Assembly (NCBI GenBank): GCA_963797855.1
Contig: CAWCQX010000009.1
Location: 52,162-116,161 of the forward strand
DNA: 64,000 nucleotides
Direction: 5' to 3'
DNA from: an uncultured Chloroflexia bacterium
Lineage (GTDB): Bacteria > Chloroflexota > Limnocylindria > QHBO01
Shown here: positions 3,960-58,974 of the stretch, piece by piece
Layout of the letters: every line of letters begins with the position of its first letter
Position numbering within the stretch: position 1 is the first letter of the stretch
The notes under the pieces: generated by a model
What the model was told of the DNA's origin: nothing
Databases searched by the model: none
The model's input: the letters and a program-made list of their open reading frames with translations, nothing else
Program-made: the position numbers and the translations under genes

Positions 3960-5170
3960 ATGCGCCCGAAAGCCAACACGATTCTCATCTGCGCCCGTGG
4001 CAAGGAGCTCCGCACGGAGCTCGAGGAGGCGCTCGTCGACGCCGGCCACAAGGTCGCCTCGGTGACGACCCCGGCCGATGCGGTTGCCACGATGCGCAAG
4101 GACCCGATCGACCTGATCGTGGCCGAAGGGCTTGCCGCGTCCGGCGCCATCGCCTCGCTGCGAACCGCCGCTGAAGGCCGGATCACGCCGATCCTCGTCG
4201 TCGCGCCGGCTCATGACGTCGAGGCCCGCATCGCGTTCCTGGAGGCGGGCGCCGATGACGTGATCTCCGGTGGCTTCGAGCCGACCGAGCTGTCCGGCCG
4301 GGTCACGGCGCTCCTCATCCGGACCGGTCGGATCGCCGCCGACCTCGGAGCCCATCCCGGAACCGGTGAGATCGTCGCGTTCTTCAGCCCGAAGGGCGGA
4401 GTCGGCACGACGACCCTCGCCGTCAACACCGCGGTGCTCCTGGCCGGGGGCGCCGGAGCGAAGGCGCGGGCGCCCGCCCAGCCGACGAACGGGGTGCTCC
4501 CGTCGTCTCGCGTCCTGCTGATCGACCTCGACCTCCAGTTCGGGCAGGTCGCCACCCACCTGAACCTCATGCCGCGCTACGACGTCGCCGGACTCGCCAG
4601 TGACGATGCCATCGCTGGCCGATCCCGAGCTGGCGCGAACCTACCTCACGACCCACAGCTCCGGGCTCAACGTGCTCGCGGCCCCCGCCCGTCCGGAGGC
4701 CGACTTCCGGGTCACCCTCGAGCACCTCCAGCGCATCATCGAGATCATGCAGCCGTCGTTCGACCACATCCTGGTCGACCTCGGCAGCCGCCTCGACCCG
4801 CGCAGCCTCTGGCTCCTCGAGCAGGCCAACGCGCACGTCGTTCGTCCTCTTCCCGGAGATCGCGGCGCTCCGCGCGATGAGCCTGCTCATGGCGTTCCTG
4901 GCCGACACGACCCCGCTCCGCGCGCGGACGCTCCTGGTCATCAACCACGTCTTCCCGAAGGAGCTGCTGAAGACCCGCGACGTCGAGAACCTCCTGCGCG
5001 CGAAGCCCGCAGCGGAGGTGCCCTACACCGAGGTCGAGATGATCCGATCGGTGAACGAGGGCGTGCCGCTCGTGATGAGCCGGCCATCGACGCCGGCGGC
5101 GCTCGCGATGCGCCGGCTCGCGCAGGCCGTCATCGGCATCGAGCAGCCCGAGGTCGGTGACCAAGCAGGA
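3960..5170 (+). CDS. response-regulator receiver domain fused to CpaE/ParA-family P-loop ATPase (Flp-pilus assembly CpaE-like); frameshifted
   Basis: N-terminal REC-like domain (ILICARGKEL...IDLIVAEG), then a deviant Walker A (FFSPKGGVGTTTLAVN) and ParA/MinD-like motifs. Reconstruction needs three reading frames (3960-4590, about 4590-4860, about 4860-5170), i.e. two frame changes. End is uncertain and the ORF runs into tRNA-Leu. Confidence 0.55.
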
Positions 5171-5292: not shown

Positions 5293-5311
5293 CCGCCGGC
5301 GCTGGGAAAGG

Positions 5312-5398
5312 TGGAGGCGACGACGGCGAGTCGAACCCGCGTACGCGGTTCTGCGCAGTCGACCTCCGGAACGTGCGCCACTGTACGCGATCGTCCGC
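5312..5398 (-). pseudogene. degenerate tRNA-Cys-like copy (tRNA remnant / pseudo-tRNA)
   Basis: The first roughly 45 nt (tggaggcgacgacgg...tcgaacccg...gtacgcggtt) match the 3' half of tRNA-Cys at 5804-5878 with a few substitutions. The remainder has diverged with indels. I could not fold a canonical cloverleaf, and the T-stem does not pair. Confidence 0.4.
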
Positions 5399-5618: not shown

Positions 5619-5792
5619 ATGACACGCCGGATGGAGCGAGCGGAGCTGCTGAATCAGCTTTGCGATCTCCGTGACGCCTACAAGCGACGAGGCCCCGAGG
5701 ATCGGGAGGCATCGGTCACGATGGAGAGCCTGCTCGATCATCTGGCGAAGATCTGGGATCACGCGCAGGTGGCGTCCGAGCTGAGCGCGTGA
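5619..5792 (+). CDS. hypothetical small protein (57 aa) lying between the tRNA-Cys remnant and tRNA-Cys
   Basis: ATG preceded by GGAAGGGAGA SD-like sequence. Lies in a locally lower-GC roughly 400-bp segment. No recognisable domain. Confidence 0.3.
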   Translation: MTRRMERAELLNQLCDLRDAYKRRGPEDREASVTMESLLDHLAKIWDHAQVASELSA

Positions 5793-5803: not shown

Positions 5804-5878
5804 TGGAGGCGACGACGGGAATCGAACCCGTGTACGCGGTTTTGCAGACCGCTCCCTGAACCACTCGGGCACGTCGCC
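5804..5878 (-). tRNA. tRNA-Cys (anticodon GCA)
   Basis: Reverse complement: acceptor GGCGACG, anticodon stem GCGGT/ACCGC with loop CTGCAAA, T-arm ACGGG-TTCGATT-CCCGT, CCA encoded. Confidence 0.88.
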
Positions 5879-24119: not shown

Positions 24120-25390
24120 CCTCGATGCGGCGGTATCGGCCGCCGAACAGCCCGGCGAGCTCGATGACGCCGCCGATGAGGAGCCGCGGGAGATCGGCGG
24201 CCGGAGGCGCCGCCTACGGCGCATCGGTCGCGGACGGGGCCGGTTCGGGCGGCTGCGCCAGCTCGTCGGCGAGGTACTGCTGGATGCCGCCGTAGTCGCC
24301 CGGCCCGGTCCAGCCGGTCGGGATGAGGATGTACTGGCCGATCGGTGTTCGTCGTCGCCGTCAGGACCGGGCCCTCGGTGAGCTCGACGCGGCGGTCGCT
24401 CGACAGGTGCGACGAGAGGAGGAACAGGTCGATCACGGACAGGTCGGTGCGGACCCGGCCCTCCATCGCGTCCATGAGCCCCAGGCCCGGGACCGATCGA
24501 GCCGACGCCGCCGTCGCCGAGCTTCGCGCGCAGCGCCGCGAGGATCCGCGCCTGGCGCACCGACCGCGCGAAGTCGGTCGACTCCGACACGACGCTCGTG
24601 TAGCGCGCCCGGGAGTAGGCGAGCGCCTGCTCGCCGTCGAGGTGGAGCTCGCCCTGCTCGAAGCGGCCCATGTCCCAGTTGCCGGCGAGGTGCGATACTC
24701 CTCGATCGTCGTGTAGCTGAAGGCGACCGGGTTGTCGACCGTCACGCCGCCGACGGCGTCGACCATCTCCTGGAAGCCCGGTGAAGTCGATCGAGAGCCA
24801 GTGGTCGATCTCGAGCCCGGTGACCGTCGAGAGCGACGTCGGCCAGCGCGCGCCGGCGCGTCGTCGAGGGACTCTCGCCGTTGATGTAGCCGAGCGCGAA
24901 CACCTCGTTGATCTTGCCGTTCTGCGGAACGCCGGCGACGCCCTCGATCCACAGGTCGCGCGGGATCGGGATCGTGGTGTCGTGTCGGTCGCCGGATCGA
25001 TCGAGAGGATCTGGATCGAGTCGGCCAGGTAGGCGCCGTCGTGGTCCGCCGCCGCCGTAGCCGACCATCAGCACGTTGACCCGGTCGCTGCCGTTCAGCG
25101 GGCCGAGGAGCGGGGTCGAGGGGAATGGGGCGCTCGAGACGGTGGCGTTGAAGGCGGCCGCCCGCATCCCGAGCAGGACGCCGCCGACGATCGACGGCCA
25201 GCGAGCACGAGGAGCAGGACGTTGCGCACCGTTCGCCGGAACGAGCGTCCGCGCGCGGCGCGCGTGCGCGCGGCGCGCCGCGGCTGCGCGGAGGCTGGCC
25301 TGCTGCCGGCGGTCGCCGCTCGCTGCGAGGCGCCGCCGGAGCGGATCAGCTCGCGGTCGTAGGGACGGGTCGTCGTCGCGTCGCGCGGTG
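24120..25390 (-). CDS. LytR-CpsA-Psr (LCP) family cell-envelope protein (multiply frameshifted; boundaries approximate)
   Basis: DRVNVLMVGYGGGG...IPRDLWIEGVAG...GKINEVFALGYING; ...GELHLDGEQALAYSRARY...; N-terminal Arg-rich segment plus TM. Confidence 0.55.
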
Positions 25391-54033: not shown

Positions 54034-54645
54034 TCATCGGATGAAGAGTTCCCGGTGCTCGGCGAGGAGCTCGCGGAGGCGAAGCCGCCCGCGGTGGATC
54101 CGCGACTTCACCGTGCCGAGGGCCGACTGGGTCATGGCGGCCACCTCGTTGTAGTCCATCCCGTAGACGTCGCACAGCACGATCGCGGTTCGCTGATCTT
54201 CCGGCAGCCGCGCAAGCGCCTGCTCGAGGTATCGGTACATCTCGGCCTTCGTCGCCTCGACGTCCGGGTTGACGGCGGCATGGTCCGGGAGCTCCGGCGC
54301 TCCCTCCTCGGGGTCCGGGAGCGGCCCCGCCGGTCGTCGCTGCTGGCGCCGCAGGATGTCGTAGCTCGCGTTGGCGGTGATGCGCAGCAGCCACGATCGG
54401 AAGATCCCGCCGCGATAGGAGCCGATGGCCCGATAGGCGTGGATGAACGCGTCCTGCGTCGCATCGGCCGCCTGGTCGGGGTCTCCGAGGAGGCGCCACG
54501 CGAGGCCGTAGCACGCGCTCTGGTAGTGCTCCATCAGCTGCGCGAACGACGTTCGGTCACCGTCCGCGGCCCGTGCGATGACAGCCGCTTCGTCGGGAAG
54601 CGGCTGCGTACGGGTGCCAGTGGTCGGCGCCGGGAGGTCGGCCAT
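54034..54645 (-). CDS. ECF (sigma-70 family) RNA polymerase sigma factor
   Basis: Intact. Region 2 (FAQLMEHYQSACYGLAWRLLGDPDQAADATQDAFIHAY) and region 4 HTH (YNEVAAMTQSALGTVKSRIHRGRLRL). Confidence 0.85.
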   Translation of the reverse strand: MADLPAPTTGTRTQPLPDEAAVIARAADGDRTSFAQLMEHYQSACYGLAWRLLGDPDQAADATQDAFIHAYRAIGSYRGGIFRSWLLRITANASYDILRRQQRRPAGPLPDPEEGAPELPDHAAVNPDVEATKAEMYRYLEQALARLPEDQRTAIVLCDVYGMDYNEVAAMTQSALGTVKSRIHRGRLRLRELLAEHRELFIR

Positions 54646-54661
54646 CGGCTTCCTATAATGA

Positions 54662-54748
54662 CGGCTGCCCTCGCCGGGGTGGCGGAATCGGTAGACGCTT
54701 CGGTCTCAAACACCGATGAGCGCAAGCTCGTGTGGGTTCGAGTCCCAC
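54662..54748 (+). tRNA. tRNA-Leu (anticodon CAA)
   Basis: Class-II tRNA GCCGGGGTGGCGGAATCGGTAGACGC...TCGGT-CTCAAAC-ACCGA... long variable arm ...GGGTTCGAGTCCC...CCA. Confidence 0.85.
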
Positions 54749-54851
54749 CCCCGGCACCAGCTCAATAGCTCAGCCTGAGCACGAATCTGCCCCCTCATGG
54801 TGGGAATTCTTCCGACAACATGCGTTCGATAGTTACAAATGACAGCCGGGC

Positions 54852-54909
54852 GGCCATTACCCGCCTCCTGGGCTAGCAGGGAGGATCGGTGCGTCGGGAC
54901 AGCGGCGGC
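54852..54909 (+). repeat. repeat element copy 1 (long form: GGCCATTACCCGCCTC...GCTAGCAGGGAGGATCGGTGCGTCGGGACAGCGGCGGC)
   Basis: About 90% identical over about 50 nt to the copy at 56851-56896. Core shared with four further copies. Contains SD-like AGGGAGGA plus GTG. Confidence 0.7.
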
Positions 54910-54928
54910 TTCAGTATCCTCAGGGATC

Positions 54929-55387
54929 ATGGGCGTCGACCACCGCCGGCTGATTGACCGGCTGACCGCGGCACTTAGCCGAAGCGACTGGCCAATTCTT
55001 TCCGAGGTCTTCGCACCGGATGCGCTGATGGAGTTCCCTCAGTCCGGCGAGGCGTTCGAGGGCATCGACAACATCCGAGGCCAGTTCGCCGACTACCCGG
55101 ACATGTTCGACAACCCCGTCAGCACGCTTGACATCGCGGCCGAGGAACAGACATTTGCGCTCTCCCCGAACTACACGGTGATCTCCGTCGGTGGCAGCGG
55201 CAAGAGTGCGACCGCCACCATGCGCACGCGCTACCCGGATGGGTCGCTGTGGTGGGTGCTCGTCGTCTATGACACGGACGGCGAACTCATGAGCCGAGCC
55301 AAGGTCTATTTCGCGCCCGAGTTCGAGCCGGCGGAGTGGCGATCGAAGTATCGGGCTCCGTCCAACAGGGACGGTGCGTCGGGATAG
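54929..55387 (+). CDS. SnoaL-like / NTF2-fold protein
   Basis: MGVDHRRLIDRLTAALSRSDWPILSEVFAPDALMEFPQSGEAFEGIDNIRGQF... about 150 aa, typical SnoaL_2-like polyketide-cyclase fold proteins. Stop TAG lies inside repeat copy 2. Confidence 0.55.
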   Translation: MGVDHRRLIDRLTAALSRSDWPILSEVFAPDALMEFPQSGEAFEGIDNIRGQFADYPDMFDNPVSTLDIAAEEQTFALSPNYTVISVGGSGKSATATMRTRYPDGSLWWVLVVYDTDGELMSRAKVYFAPEFEPAEWRSKYRAPSNRDGASG

Positions 55388-55394
55388 CGGCGGC
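55370..55394 (+). repeat. repeat element copy 2 (core only: GACGGTGCGTCGGGATAGCGGCGGC)
   Basis: Core motif without the SD-like part. Sits in the convergent gap between 54929-55387 and 55402-55581. Confidence 0.65.
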
Positions 55395-55401
55395 CCGCTG
55401 C

Positions 55402-55581
55402 CTAGCTCTCGCTGATCACCGTGATGACGGACTCATCACGGCGCCACTCGTGGTCGGCTCCACAGCCGGCACAGCCGTTCAGGACGTTGACCGCGGGCAG
55501 CTCGTCCAGCACATCCGCTGTGACCCCGGTTGGCACCAAGTCACCGGTCTGCGGGCACGTGATCAACACTACCGACCTCAC
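55402..55581 (-). CDS. small CPxCG-type zinc-ribbon-like protein (59 aa)
   Basis: GTG start preceded by AGGGGAGG SD at 8-nt spacing. MRSVVLITCPQTGDLVPTG...NGCAGCGADHEW. Low GC3 codons (gta, ttg, aca, cca) atypical for this genome. Confidence 0.45.
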   Translation of the reverse strand: MRSVVLITCPQTGDLVPTGVTADVLDELPAVNVLNGCAGCGADHEWRRDESVITVISES

Positions 55582-55924
55582 CTTGCGGCCCTCCCCTATC
55601 CCCGGTATCGGCGGCGCAGTCGATGTATCGGAGAAGCCTCGGGCCGACATCTCTCCGGGCAGGGAGTCATCCGACCGAGGCCCCCGCCCATGCTGTATGC
55701 AACCGCCATGCCGATGGCACGCTCGGTGCACTGGTACAGCAGAGCCGCCGGACAGACTGCGGGGGAACGCAGTTGAACCGGCGGCTCTTCCCTAACTCTA
55801 CTGCTGCGGTCCACGAAGACAGGAGACCCGTGGCGTGAGGCTGCCCTCGAGCGGAAGCTCGAACTCACGGCACGGGTCTGCGAGTAACAACGCAAGGGCT
55901 TGCTCGGCGTTAGGCACGGAGCTG

Positions 55925-55958
55925 GCAGGGAGGATCGGTGCGTCGGGATAGCGGCGGC
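55925..55958 (+). repeat. repeat element copy 3 (GCAGGGAGGATCGGTGCGTCGGGATAGCGGCGGC)
   Basis: SD-like plus GTG plus core. A 19-codon uORF (VRRDSGGLCVAALAGKRNL) follows it. Confidence 0.7.
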
Positions 55959-56070
55959 TTGTGTGTGGCTGCTCTTGCTGGCAAGCGTAACCTTTGAAGG
56001 CCGCCAGACATTCCGGCGGTGCCACCCGCTGTCGTGGCTAACGGGTCCCCGAGCAAGGAGGGATGTCCCC

Positions 56071-56244
56071 GTGCGTCCACTTCATTTGAGAGCGGCGATG
56101 GTGGTCGCCATCCTCTCCATTCTGGCCCTCGCCACGCCCGCGCTGGCGCAGAAGGGCTTCTCATTCAAGTTCACGCAAACTGGAACAGCGGCATCCGCCT
56201 CGTTTGGTTCGTGCATCCCCGACACGCCCGAAGAGGGCTCTTGA
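56071..56244 (+). CDS. small secreted protein with Sec signal peptide (57 aa), possibly the 5' part of a larger frameshifted secreted protein
   Basis: GTG preceded by AAGGAGGG SD. Signal peptide MRPLHLRAAMVVAILSILALATPALA then QKGFSFKFTQTGTAASASFGSCIPDTPEEGS. Confidence 0.5.
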   Translation: MRPLHLRAAMVVAILSILALATPALAQKGFSFKFTQTGTAASASFGSCIPDTPEEGS

Positions 56245-56372
56245 GACCTGCGACTTCACCTTTGTCAGTGTGGTCGATGGTTCCACGCGCTTCTCCTCCT
56301 CTGACGAGGGGGTCACCCGGGCAGCGGTTCCCAGGCGTGTGTCGACCATCAGGTCTCGATCCAGAGTGATGA

Positions 56373-56822
56373 TTCTTCGAGTTGGTGAGCCTGCAGAGCG
56401 GATGCACCGACACGTTCACCTTGGCGACTGCAGCCGACCTGTCGAGCGCCCATCTGGTGGCCACGGTGCCGGTGTTCGACCTTGAGTGCGATGAGTTCAC
56501 CTGCGAGCCAGTGGGCGACCCGACCGACACGGCGGTGGACATCACCTGGTCAGCGGATGAAGTCCAGACCGTGCGCGAGCACGGGGTCTTCCACTCTCTT
56601 CAGGGCGACCTGTGGTGCACCAGCAATCAAACCCGTCGCGGGCTGGGTGCGTTCGGCACAGCGACTGGCACTGTCGGCGGTGTTGATGTCGGAACCGCCG
56701 AGTTCGCCGAGATCTTCTCCGGTGTCATGAAGTTCAATGACAATCTGCCACTAAGCGGGGTGCCATCTGGCGGCTTGGAGGCGCTAAGGACGCGCAAGCC
56801 GCCAGTAATCGACCCGGAGTAG
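56373..56822 (+). CDS. hypothetical Cys-containing protein (no own SD/signal peptide; probable continuation of 56071-56244 through two frameshifts)
   Basis: Open frame from the stop at 56370 to 56822. Repeated C-x-(D/T)-F-T motifs shared with the signal-peptide ORF and the intervening frame (CDFTFVSVVDGSTRF). Confidence 0.4.
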   Translation, partial: FFELVSLQSGCTDTFTLATAADLSSAHLVATVPVFDLECDEFTCEPVGDPTDTAVDITWSADEVQTVREHGVFHSLQGDLWCTSNQTRRGLGAFGTATGTVGGVDVGTAEFAEIFSGVMKFNDNLPLSGVPSGGLEALRTRKPPVIDPE

Positions 56823-56850
56823 CCTCTGGCATCGAGCCGCCGCGAATCCC

Positions 56851-56896
56851 GGCCATTACCCGCCTCAGCTAGCAGGGAGGATCGGTGCGTCGGGAC
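56851..56896 (+). repeat. repeat element copy 4 (long form, 3' part diverged)
   Basis: GGCCATTACCCGCCTCAGCTAGCAGGGAGGATCGGTGCGTCGGGA then diverges (CGCTGCGCC). Confidence 0.65.
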
Positions 56897-56975
56897 GCTG
56901 CGCCGGGTACGAACCGAAGTTCATACCCGGCGCGAGACTGGAAGGGCTGCAGCAGCCATGCCATGTGCAGCGTTC

Positions 56976-57001
56976 GATCGGTGCGTCGGGATAGCGGCGG
57001 C
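56976..57001 (+). repeat. repeat element copy 5 (core GATCGGTGCGTCGGGATAGCGGCGGC)
   Basis: Exact core. 95 nt downstream of copy 4 and in the same reading frame. A 43-codon uORF spans both. Confidence 0.7.
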
Positions 57002-57240
57002 TCTCTGTGACCCGCTCGGTTGGAGTCCGGCCGATGAGAGTTCTCTGGCACGAACGTTTGTCCGGTGTCAACGGATGTGGCGCTCCGGGCTTGACCTCTC
57101 CCAGTGCCCAGGAGTAGTACTCACCGCACCCGAGTGCCCTTCTCCGCTGCCCGCGTTCACGGCGACCCGGGTTCAGCGCGCGCCGCGAACGGTGCGCACA
57201 GCGCCGTCGCTGTCACGACGGCAGAACGAAGGAGCACTAC

Positions 57241-57594
57241 GTGCCTCGATCCCATTCCTGGAAGTCGCGGTTCGGCTTTGCCGTCGCGACCGCCGCTCTT
57301 GTGGCAAGCCTCACCGCGGGAGCTGCGCTGGCCGGCGAGGTCACGGGGCCGCCCGGCAAGGGTGGCCTTACGCCGATCGGCGCTGCGCCTGATACCGATC
57401 CGCATGCGCACTCGATCTGCTCGTTCTCTGGTCTTGGTGACGGAGAGGATGCGCCCGGCCGGACGGCCGCCCACGTCCAGAACTGGGGACAGATCCCGAA
57501 GGTGCAGCGAGACGCGATGAGCCTTATCGGCTTCCATCCCGGCGACTCGTGCAACGGCCATTCCGGATTCTTCTCCGGGGCCGGCGGGGAGTAG
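57241..57594 (+). CDS. hypothetical secreted protein (117 aa) with Sec signal peptide
   Basis: GTG preceded by GAAGGAG SD. Signal peptide MPRSHSWKSRFGFAVATAALVASLTAGAALA. Mature part Gly/Pro-rich with two Cys. Confidence 0.5.
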   Translation: MPRSHSWKSRFGFAVATAALVASLTAGAALAGEVTGPPGKGGLTPIGAAPDTDPHAHSICSFSGLGDGEDAPGRTAAHVQNWGQIPKVQRDAMSLIGFHPGDSCNGHSGFFSGAGGE

Positions 57595-57656
57595 TCCCCG
57601 GCGCACTGTCCCGGATTCCCGGGCGCAGTCGAGAGCCGCCGCGAAACCCGTCAGCC

Positions 57657-57681
57657 ATCGATGCGTCGGGCTAGCGGCGGC
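57657..57681 (+). repeat. repeat element copy 6 (variant core ATCGATGCGTCGGGCTAGCGGCGGC)
   Basis: ATG instead of GTG, GCT instead of GAT. Starts a 77-codon ORF (57661-57894) of doubtful coding value. Confidence 0.6.
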
Positions 57682-57887
57682 TTCTCAACCTTCGAAGACC
57701 CGGGGCACGCTCGAGCTGGTTCGCCAGCGGTCAGGACCCCTGAGCGGCGTCGACGTTTTCGGTCTGGGGCTCCAGGCGCCGGACCACGATCGTTTCGTGG
57801 CGCTCACGCTCGGCTGGATCGGGAATCCATCGGCGCTCGAACGGCTTCACTCGCAGCGCCAGCCAGGCGCGAATTCGACGGCGCATG

Positions 57888-58686
57888 TCAGTGATCCTCG
57901 CCCGATCCCTCGGGATTCTCGTGGTCACCGCCGTTGCCCATGATCGAACCGATGCCGGGATGCACCCCCAGCTCCTTCGCGATCTGGCCCCAGCCCATCC
58001 CGCTTCCTTCCGAGCCGTCACCGTCGCGCATGACGCGAAGATCGGCCATCCGGTCAGGATCCGCCTGAGACCAGGCGACGATGCGGACCGCGCCACCGAC
58101 TCCGTACTTCGTGGCGAGCTCGGTCAGCACCTCGTCCGAGACCTCGAAGCCGTTCGCGGCGAGCCGCTCGCCGGCATGGGCGATCTCATCCGCGGTCGGA
58201 GGGCTGTCGCCTTCGTCCTCTGTCGGGCTCCGCAGACTCTTCGGGCTCCGCAGACTGTTCGGGCTCCGCAGACTCTTCGGGCTCCGCAGACTGTTCGGGC
58301 TCCGCCGACTGGCTCGCCTCACCCGGTGTCTCAAGCGCGCGTGTCACGACGACTGCCGCGCTCGCGACCAGGATGAGGGCGAGGAGGATCGCCAACCCGA
58401 AGCTGTTCGTTCGCGTCATCAGGGCCGAAGCGTACCCGATGCACCTTGCCGTGAGCCTTGCCGCACGGGCTTTCGCGGTGCCCAATGGCACCGTCCCAGG
58501 CTGCCGAGGATCAGCCCGCGGCGGCCTGCGTGCGGAGCGTGACCGGGCGACCGGGCGGGAGATCCAGGCGGCGGACGTGTCGTGCCGGCGTCGCGCCTCG
58601 GCCACCGCCTCGGCAAGGGTTGCCGAGGGAGCGGCCATGACCGCGAGCTGCACGGAGCGGACCTGGCCGTGTGTCGTTCCGTTCAT
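57888..58686 (-). CDS. membrane-anchored protein with acidic hexapeptide repeats (SAEPE[QE] x5), frameshifted inside or next to the repeat tract
   Basis: ATG preceded by CCAGGAGG SD. Cytoplasmic N-terminal about 90 aa, TM helix (FGLAILLALILVASAAVVV), SAEPEQ/SAEPEE repeats. C-terminal domain (...GWGQIAKELGVHPGIGSIMGNGG...) in a second frame. Confidence 0.45.
58222..58311. repeat. tandem repeat, 18-nt unit x5 (TTCGGGCTCCGCAGACTC/G)
   Basis: Five near-perfect head-to-tail copies with the last base alternating C/G. Encodes SAEPE[QE] on the minus strand. Confidence 0.9.
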
Positions 58687-58974
58687 CTCGTGGGACCTCC
58701 TGGACCGTGTCATTCGGCGGCGCAATCAAGGCGCCGTCGTGGTGCCACGGTACGGGCGAGGGCCGGTGGCGCCCATCGGGCGCCCGACGGTATCGGTCCT
58801 GGGAGAAGCGTCCGGGGTGCCTCGGGCGGGATGACGTACGAGCGGTAGACTCTCCGACGGTCGGCCCGTTGCGGGGCAGACCAACCGGCCGTCGGCGTTC
58901 TCACCGCCGGCGGCCACCTGCGTGCTAGGCTTCGTCGCCACCCGGAACCAATCGAGGAGCTCCGTCGCCTCTCC

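Follow-up and report, generated by a model that had tools for sequence, protein, structure and literature searches.

A hairpin repeat that closes small gene cassettes in Limnocylindria and may act as an integron-like recombination site

What is the role of a short repeat that recurs on one strand of a single small islet in a bacterial chromosome? The question is raised by a 64,000-nt stretch of DNA (the window) from an uncultured Chloroflexia bacterium (GenBank assembly GCA_963797855.1, contig CAWCQX010000009.1, positions 52,162 to 116,161, forward strand). The bacterium belongs to Limnocylindria, an abundant uncultured class of Chloroflexota in soil and freshwater. The 26-nt core of the repeat, GATCGGTGCGTCGGGATAGCGGCGGC, matches the + strand at 54884, 55369, 55933, 56976, and 57656 with 0–3 mismatches, has no match in 100 dinucleotide-preserving shuffles, and is found nowhere else in the 64-kb window outside 54852–57684. 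A sixth copy (56851–56896) has 47–50 nt in common with copy 1 and is truncated within the core at ...GTCGGGAC. The original prediction, made from the window sequence, of six copies that share one orientation and resemble each other beyond chance is thus upheld, with five near-exact copies and one truncated, all on the + strand. As functions it had offered upstream open reading frames (uORFs) for leader peptides, a shared promoter or operator for the neighbouring extracytoplasmic function (ECF) sigma factor or another regulator, or a structured RNA.

Many Limnocylindria genomes and soil metagenome contigs carry a modular element of ~100–140 nt, of which the core forms the invariant 3' arm. Small gene and element together form a cassette that is gained, lost, and exchanged as a unit, by site-specific or homologous recombination. 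Judged from comparative analysis, the chances are roughly even that the element is a non-canonical cassette recombination site acting like attC, of the kind found in integrons and in attC-site clusters that have no integron-integrase (CALINs). A full-text literature search returned no description of such an element, nor of integrons in Limnocylindria; integrons are on record for Chloroflexi generally.

Structure of the element

From 5' to 3', the element consists of three stop codons, a long imperfect hairpin, and the 3' strand of that hairpin, the core. The hairpin (~90 nt) opens with a 5' arm, GAGCCGCCGC-GAAG-CCCGGC, continues through a variable apical hairpin, and closes with GGTGCGTCGGGATAGCGGCGGCTTC. 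Its helices are an outer stem (GCATCGG/CCGTATGC), P1 (GAGCCGCCGC/GCGGCGGCTT, 10–11 bp), and, beyond an asymmetric internal loop (GAAG/ATA), P2 (CCCGGC/GTCGGG, 6 bp). The 5' arm is recognisable in fewer than half of cores and, in the window, only at 56834 (copy 4) and 57633 (copy 6), as GAGCCGCCGCGAAnCCCG; the original prediction overlooked it, along with the array and cassette layout and the link to tRNA genes. The small 5-bp hairpin that had been drawn within the core is present but is not the relevant structure, the core being one strand of the larger hairpin. The suggestion of a structured RNA survives to the extent that a structured nucleic acid is involved, but no Rfam family matches. At the gathering threshold the 64-kb window yields tRNAs only, and at E-values (E) up to 10 no Rfam match overlaps the element in three of the comparison loci (numbered here with an L: L029, L008, and L007).

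A covariance model (R1) was built from 11 full-length copies, with 89 positions and 23 pairs. With this model, 80 metagenome loci yielded 105 more copies at E < 1e-3, and 40 additional loci another 55 at E < 0.01. Across 98 distinct copies, 91.1% of cells are paired, compared with 31–52% when partners are slid, and both sides have changed in 89 cells, compared with 22.8 in shuffles; the observed values were reached by none of 500 shuffles. Double compensations occur in all helices, including P1, P2, and P3, as in the change from GCCGCCGC...CCCGGC...GTCGGG...GCGGCGGC to GCCGCCGG...CCTCGC...GTGAGG...CCGGCGGC. Conserved G.U pairs, together with one-sided changes that are mostly C to U, indicate that the fold is strand-specific, as RNA or single-stranded DNA. 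Full copies have fold z-scores (z) of -3.7/-4.0 on the element's strand versus -1.75/-1.6 on the reverse strand, and the copies in the window, which are truncated or degenerate, lie between +1.0 and -1.9. A weak R1 match elsewhere in the window (24132–24210; 21.6 bits, E 0.08), far from the islet and with no recognisable core, is probably due to chance.

The apical hairpin has two main variants. An arrangement of a Shine-Dalgarno (SD)-like sequence and GTG is confined to one of them, and the other reads GGGAAGGTG, without that spacing. In the window, the upstream extension with SD-like AGGGAGGA and then GTG is found in copies 1, 3, and 4, as originally described. SD-like purine runs lie in the 3' strand of the apical hairpin, and a palindromic hexamer (TCTAGA, GCTAGC, CCTAGG, TCGCGA, or TCCGGA) forms its tip in 58 of 86 unique copies. 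No U-tract follows the full hairpin, which is succeeded by CTTCCGTATGC without a T run, and the sole match in an intrinsic-terminator test is the small intra-core hairpin of copy 3; a U-less terminator function is possible.

Some elements retain the 5' half only and are broken at or near a palindromic CTAG tip, after ...GGTCTA (L059 2312, L063 2073, L077 1609). The tip may be a target for insertions; CTAG or TA is a known target of some insertion sequence (IS) families. The presumed use of CTAG as a target by IS630/IS5 is an oddity only, as is the resemblance of GGTGCGT...ATAGC to the origin of transfer of R388. Near 690–740 on the - strand of L093, the core end is duplicated in tandem (GGGATAGCGGCGGCTTTCTGT followed by GGGATAGCGGCGGCTTCTGT), as seen by comparison with L119 near position 700 (contigs 98% identical), which is either a slippage or a recombination footprint at the junction.

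Homology among copies begins ~40 nt upstream of P1 (window 56796), where the consensus is (A)GTAAGCCGCCAGTAAGCGACCCGGAGTAGCATCGGCATCGG followed by P1, and the ~100 nt from 56796 onwards are common to dozens of copies. Stop codons in this module peak at -40, -29, and -15 from P1, each peak lying in a frame of its own. Of 89 unique copies, 62 have two or more frames closed and 21 have all three closed; the corresponding figures for 89 control segments are 11 and 1. Three-frame stops and the predominance of co-oriented upstream genes described below are features at the level of translation or transcripts, which makes at least a partial RNA role likely. The element was also considered as a supplier of start codons, and this was rejected: the ATG in CTTCCGTATGC opens a coding-like open reading frame (ORF) in just 9 of 65 cases, and the outer-stem strand explains the ATG better.

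Arrays, cassettes, and their junctions

An exact-match scan for a 21–22-nt core, with one genome per species, gave 41 loci. About 20 of these belong to Candidatus Limnocylindria or 'uncultured Chloroflexia' metagenome-assembled genomes (MAGs; class Limnocylindria, phylum Chloroflexota), and the core sequence is nearly the same across many species. The other loci hold variant cores (GGGCCAGC) in unrelated phyla, which score below 20 bits with R1 and look like chance or coding matches. The core is present on at least 120 soil-metagenome contigs, all matches listed being on soil-type contigs. A scan of viral contigs with the core gave no match and hence no evidence for a phage attachment (att) or cos site. 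The claimed confinement to the islet therefore holds within the window but not beyond it. Genomes carry a few to a few tens of copies, clustered rather than dispersed, and not the hundreds of a generic genome-wide repeat; MAG MFD02840.bin.2.336, for example, has 6 exact cores and ~18 model matches in 5 loci.

Array loci contain 2–8 cores, and neighbouring cores are co-oriented in 111 of 116 cases (96%). The spacing between elements (median 635 nt, interquartile range 460–980 nt) corresponds to about one small gene. Elements lie ~5–100 nt after stop codons; the gene upstream points the same way as the element in 67 cases and the opposite way in 20, the gene downstream in 51 and 26. Adjacent genes are co-oriented in ~63%, and ~25–30% of neighbouring genes lie on the strand opposite to the element. 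In some cassettes the sole gene is reversed (L009, L005, L034, and window 55402–55731). The cargo is small and diverse (cupins, SnoaL-like and SRPBCC proteins, DUF2243, sigma factors, receiver domains), mostly without a Pfam match, and its GC content at third codon positions is below that of core genes.

Homology blocks were delimited by all-against-all comparison of ~140 loci. Their right ends peak 0 to +19 nt past the last base of the core, where 30 ends fall, and 15% of block ends are no more than 30 nt away from a core end, versus 1.6% for random positions, a ten-fold enrichment. Viewed at the junctions, the paired sequences are identical as far as ...GCGGCGGC(TT[C]) and unrelated from there on. 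Individual cassettes recur in separate arrays within a genome (L029/L006, 95%; L017/L029) and across genomes (L071/L050, L006/L034, and the window SnoaL cassette/L079). Indels between collinear loci are cassette-sized, and none comprises the element only (~90–140 nt). A 990-nt indel between L161 and L145 was rejected as a cassette event, since it is not bounded by elements and is a deletion within an integrase gene.

A close relative provides a direct comparison with the window. In its 316-kb contig, L162, the flanks are 94–98% identical and the SnoaL protein is identical, and the two sequences differ by two discrete events, a tRNA-Leu island and the absence of window positions ~55949–56866. 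The junction in L162, GGCAGGGAGGATCGGTGCGTCGGGA joined to CACTGCGCC, unites the left part of copy 3 with the right part of copy 4; the absent block, if circularised, would consist of one gene and one intact element. Precise block ends between ...GCGGCGGC and TT, combined with the absence of one block from L162, identify the gene plus its downstream element as the exchangeable unit. Another locus, L115, lacks the reverse-gene block at 55395–55820, which starts right after core 2, and 12 nt connect the flanks. At the position homologous to half-copy 3 of the window, L156 has a full element, which shows that deletion gives rise to half copies.

tRNA genes often precede arrays and share their orientation: tRNA-Leu(CAA) in the window and L023, tRNA-Val in L012 (first element at +73 nt), and a Phe-Gly-Gln-Cys tRNA cluster in L017, L007, and L035. 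Islands that hold arrays are bounded by direct repeats of tRNA 3' ends in L023, L012, and L034. Integrase remnants lie beside tRNA-Leu(CAA) in L023, L113, and L162, with a similar remnant in L129. These tRNA-fragment repeats bound larger islands but differ from the core repeat. The core itself was rejected as a tRNA-derived att repeat, having no similarity to the 3' end of tRNA-Leu and no tRNA-Leu fragment at the end of the islet.

Several further observations concern these tRNA sites. The island in L162 (8611–9785, 1175 nt) lies between ~81-nt direct repeats of the tRNA-Leu(CAA) 3' end and contains the C-terminal remnant of an integrase (...LGHSTIALTMNVYSHVIPELQREAAEKMEAVLG) and one 167-aa membrane protein; the matching spot in the window (54760–54785, GCTCAATAGCTCAGC) looks like a joined attL/attR scar. 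A motif, CTGAGCRYGAAT (window 54775–54786), stands after tRNA-Leu(CAA) or tRNA-Cys and before the first element, also in L023, L017, L007, and L035, and may belong to the att site of the island or to the tRNA trailer. Near the other end of the window, a 40-nt duplicate of the 3' end of tRNA-Cys (5311–5350, 92.5% identical; tRNA-Cys at 5804–5878, - strand) bounds a ~460-nt mini-island with one small ORF (5620–5792) and looks like the attL/attR scar of a tRNA-targeting element. The same tRNA-Cys site in L017, L007, and L035 is occupied by 3.6–5.5 kb that include the hairpin element, as a multi-element array in L017 and singly in L007 and L035.

One cassette carries a structured RNA of another kind. 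Positions 4189–4274 of L029 match the Rfam family c-di-GMP-II-GAG (58.7 bits, gathering score 40) directly upstream of a gene for a 184-aa secreted protein without a Pfam match, and the cassette is duplicated in L006 (~2650–2740). The match is a candidate orphan riboswitch on a mobile cassette, separate from the element.

The islet in the window

The islet has a GC content of 0.62–0.66 over ~3 kb, compared with 0.70–0.76 in its flanks; GC skew between 48 and 64 kb fluctuates around zero and gives no clear signal. Its features and immediate neighbours are as follows.

54034–54645: ECF sigma factor gene adjoining tRNA-Leu(CAA) (ORF list)
54673–54759, + strand: tRNA-Leu(CAA) (ARAGORN, Rfam); the array begins 76 nt downstream, in the same direction
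54835–54918, + strand: element copy 1 (R1 51.8 bits, E 3e-8)
54929–55387, + strand: cassette gene 1, SnoaL-like (Pfam SnoaL_2, 4.9e-8)
55328–55394, + strand: element copy 2 (core 55374–55394; z = -1.9)
55395–55820: block with a reverse gene (55402–55731, - strand) and hairpin repeat H2 (55741–55788), from comparison with L115
55821–55919, + strand: ORF-less unit before copy 3, also upstream of elements in L115 and L156
55920–55960, + strand: element copy 3, 3' half only (apical hairpin tip and perfect core)
55949–56866, + strand: repeat-to-repeat cassette block of ~918 nt, without counterpart in the close relative L162
56785–56833, + strand: 5' stop module and 5' strand of the outer stem (GCATCG) of copy 4, from the sequence
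56829–56913, + strand: element copy 4 (R1 48.5 bits)
56897–56975, + strand: H3 unit between copies 4 and 5, with hairpin GCGCCGGGTA...TACCCGGCGC (56901–56932)
56976–57004, + strand: element copy 5, 3' half only, perfect core (R1 26 bits over 56939–57010)
57241–57594, + strand: cassette gene, 117 aa, signal-peptide-like N-terminus (ORF list; no Pfam match)
57628–57690, + strand: element copy 6, the last in the array (R1 34.7 bits)
57888–58334, - strand: conserved flanking gene at the distal end of the array

The islet is read as a partly decayed array of six elements. Homology of the window with L023 and L113 stops exactly at 54759, the last base of tRNA-Leu(CAA). Copy 1 has an intact apical hairpin and 3' core (54889–54909, 1 mismatch) and a degenerate 5' arm, and it folds poorly (z = +1.0). 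The SnoaL cassette that follows is 92% identical in L079, where homology stops at 55394, and its protein recurs unchanged in L162. The diverged 5' half of copy 2 lies within the 3' end of the SnoaL ORF, and the TAG stop of this gene falls within the copy, as the original prediction had it; the cassette junction at 55394 is shown against both L079 and L115.

In the block between copies 3 and 4, the gene for a small secreted protein without a Pfam match appears disrupted. An ORF with a signal peptide (56073–56244) stops, and the remainder continues in another frame (56382–56822); the gene is probably a pseudogene. The stop module of copy 4 contributes a TAA at 56806 and a TAG at 56820, the latter also being the stop of the upstream ORF. 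In copy 4 itself the 5' arm (56834–56851) and apical hairpin are complete, and the core breaks off at 56896. The 117-aa cassette gene has a homologue of 72% DNA identity in L061 and L056. Copy 6 is a short form with both arms (5' arm 57633–57650) and no apical hairpin, and its P1/P2 hairpin folds with z = -1.5. DNA homologous to the flanking gene adjoins the last element in L022, L061, and L162. Within this flank, five tandem 18-nt repeats (TCGGGCTCCGCAGACTST, 58223–58312) encode SAEPE[EQ] in the - strand ORF 58186–58725 and SLRSP[KN] in the overlapping ORF 57888–58334, in another frame.

H2 (GAGCCGCCGGAC...GAACCGGCGGCTC) has a stem that resembles P1 of the main element and has homologues in L029 (5905–5950), L118, and L147. 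In the latter two loci H2 is contiguous with H3 and a core, which implies that the pair in the window was split by a 1093-nt insertion (55805–56897) flanked by CTGC. H2 and H3 are possibly a related, ORF-less type of cassette.

Weighing the explanations

The attC sites of integrons are imperfect hairpins with R and L boxes, an unpaired central spacer (UCS), and a variable terminal structure (VTS) (PMC4889954), marked by a conserved AAC/GTT triplet (Cury et al., 2016, PMC4889954). By structural analogy only, the two paired boxes, unpaired asymmetric spacer, and variable tip of the element correspond to R box, UCS, L box, and VTS. As in integrons and CALINs, each unit is one accessory gene, mostly small, followed by an imperfect hairpin site, and at least two co-oriented sites follow cassette ORFs within 4 kb (for the element, 96% co-orientation and a spacing of ~0.3–1.5 kb). 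The fold is strand-specific in both systems, the junction lies directly ahead of a conserved TT at the 3' arm's base, arrays and genomes have cassettes in common, and most arrays have no integrase nearby. The element differs from attC in its longer, GC-rich stems of near-invariant sequence across species, in the three-frame stop module on its 5' side, in the frequency of half sites, and in the location of several arrays per genome within tRNA-integrated islands instead of beside intI/attI. The element also has no AAC/GTT triplet, and no IntI was detected; it is therefore not classed as an attC site and is only proposed to work like one. A dif/Xer site or a canonical attC looked unlikely in an informal comparison by eye with the consensus sequences, as neither an XerD-arm-like ATGT..AA nor AAC/GTT is present.

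Each small gene cassette ends in one such element, and cassettes stand head to tail with their elements on one strand. If the element does work like attC, its strand would fold, and a recombinase would act near the stem base, between ...GCGGCGGC and TT, by site-specific rather than homologous recombination of folded single-stranded DNA. Circular intermediates of gene plus element would be excised and re-inserted at resident elements, and their junction would read ...GTCGGGA joined to TAGCGGCGGC..., or, written otherwise, ...GTGCGTCGGGA-TAGCGGCGGCTT.... Stop module and hairpin might also insulate each cassette from read-through translation. A wider and more tentative proposal is that Limnocylindria possess a cassette system independent of IntI, with several tRNA-linked arrays per genome, as an integron analogue with a different site and enzyme.

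Several observations weigh against an attC-like site. A tblastn search over 0.8 Mb of loci found no IntI-like protein, and most array loci are without any recombinase. AAC/GTT is not conserved at the stem base on either strand, where the element ends in GAGCCGCCGC... and ...GCGGCGGCTTC. More than half of the cores have no recognisable 5' arm, and such half sites could not fold. The stop module and the excess of co-oriented upstream genes act at the level of translation or transcripts. Homologous recombination between invariant cores of 21–30 nt would give the same junction pattern. The element itself contains about one-third of the right-hand block ends, and cassettes that are otherwise 90–99% identical have different apical hairpins, a pattern closer to conversion or homologous exchange. 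Near arrays, two intact recombinases were detected, an ordinary island-type integrase and an Xer-like enzyme; they score 52 and 57.6 bits with the integron-integrase model TIGR02249, against a cutoff of 265 bits. No consistently linked recombinase or transposase emerged from tblastn with IntI1, XerD, two local integrases, IS200 TnpA, and the REP-associated tyrosine transposase (RAYT), and none recurs in a Pfam batch of 150 neighbouring genes.

Much of this would suit a portable RNA 3'-end module, in which the stops release ribosomes, the hairpin terminates or stabilises the mRNA and shields the gene that follows, and homologous recombination shuffles the cassettes. Such a module would account for three-frame stops directly 5' of the hairpin, the position of elements shortly past the stops of co-oriented genes, the stronger sense-strand fold with its conserved G.U pairs, and the SD-like purine runs in the apical hairpin. 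It would equally accommodate breakpoints within the element, apical hairpins swapped between near-identical cassettes, and the failure to find a dedicated recombinase. The polarity of the elements in arrays, however, far exceeds the co-orientation of adjacent genes (96% versus ~63%), and ~25–30% of neighbours, including the only gene of some cassettes, face the other way. Neither the lack of a U-tract nor a hairpin tip palindromic to its centre, which has no obvious RNA rationale, fits well, and the element is confined to variable islands instead of being spread over operons genome-wide. An RNA 3'-end module appears rather unlikely but is the main rival. A selfish repeat copied as a hairpin by a trans-acting transposase such as RAYT, which would build up where intergenic DNA is permissive and leave single arms as decayed remnants, is rather improbable. 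Such repeats include repetitive extragenic palindromic (REP) sequences, bacterial interspersed mosaic elements (BIMEs), paired REPs that form hairpins (REPINs), and miniature inverted-repeat transposable elements (MITEs). The arms of the element are indeed inverted copies of one ~20-nt unit around a variable spacer, in line with the definition of a REPIN (PMC3337134): once reverse-complemented, the 3' arm (GAAGCCGCCGC-TAT-CCCGAC) matches the 5' arm, GAGCCGCCGC-GAAG-CCCGGC. As with REPs and BIMEs, the long hairpin is extragenic and lies just after genes, half copies are common (one derived by deletion, as L156 shows for window copy 3), and a few copies break off at the palindromic tip as though an insertion had struck there. 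Yet no collinear sequences were found to differ by the element only, homology units include the adjacent gene, which travels along, and the apical hairpin covaries. Copies sit in a few polar arrays per genome with 96% in the same orientation, whereas REP clusters typically alternate in orientation, and the core is the same across many species. No match to IS200 TnpA or E. coli RAYT was found in 0.8 Mb, in what is only a coarse screen.

The functions first suggested for the repeat fare worse. The short ORFs read from GTG are as they were given, by the ORF list and the sequence, but a uORF or leader-peptide attenuator starting (V/M)RRDSGG, with its own SD and regulating the downstream gene, is highly improbable. 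One hairpin variant does place SD-like GGGAGGA 4 nt before GTG, GTG and the conserved downstream ATG share a frame in 53 of 65 cases, and a few real genes open from the GTG (L027, L006, L008). Against this, the commonest hairpin variant has no usable SD-start spacing, ORF lengths are arbitrary and ORF sequences not conserved, 26 of 77 downstream neighbours (~34%) lie on the opposite strand, and the ATG rarely begins a coding-like ORF. Substitutions in 277 unique cores fall evenly on codon positions 1, 2, and 3 of the GTG frame (123/131/124), which bears out the original argument for conservation at the level of nucleic acid rather than protein. The idea recalls mycobacterial interspersed repetitive units (MIRUs) and similar intercistronic repeats, which are short, intergenic, and oriented like the flanking genes, and whose stop and start signals reach into the ORFs beside them. 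Within operons, MIRUs repeat in tandem and carry in-frame mini-ORFs; the element differs in having no coding constraint, a hairpin unit, and copies that bound exchangeable genes. It is scarcely credible that the copies serve as a common promoter or operator for either the ECF sigma factor or some other regulator. An ECF sigma gene does lie beside the tRNA gene in the window and in L023, but most arrays elsewhere have no sigma factor nearby, and covariation shows that pairing within a single strand is what is selected, rather than a protein site in duplex DNA. No ECF-type -35/-10 motif and no sigma-70 consensus occur at any copy; GGAAC-N14-19-CGT is found 17 times in the window versus 12.9 expected, is not enriched, and never stands upstream of a copy.

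Islands that target tRNA genes, of the tycheposon type, offer a last comparison. Like them, the arrays adjoin tRNA genes and are accompanied by tRNA 3'-end repeats and integrase remnants (L012, L023, L034, L162, and the tRNA-Cys site of the window). In tycheposon-type islands the repeated sequence is the tRNA fragment itself, whereas the arrays described here have, in addition, an unrelated hairpin repeat that divides the island into units of one gene each.

Integrons serve as the model of single-gene stockpiling and reshuffling in bacteria, and their definition rests on IntI and on attC sites with AAC/GTT. If the element is indeed an attC-like site, cassette-based gene capture arose more than once or is far more divergent than detectors assume, and IntegronFinder-type tools might miss a mobile accessory gene pool in a major soil lineage. 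Should the enzyme prove unrelated to IntI, the finding could exceed a variant of the integron. If the element is an RNA 3'-end module instead, three-frame stops plus a hairpin would be an unusual and testable design for a portable gene end. The covariance model and the invariant core provide a sequence tag for pulling cassettes from soil metagenomes, which also serves in the search for circular intermediates and, by phylogenetic profiling, for the enzyme.

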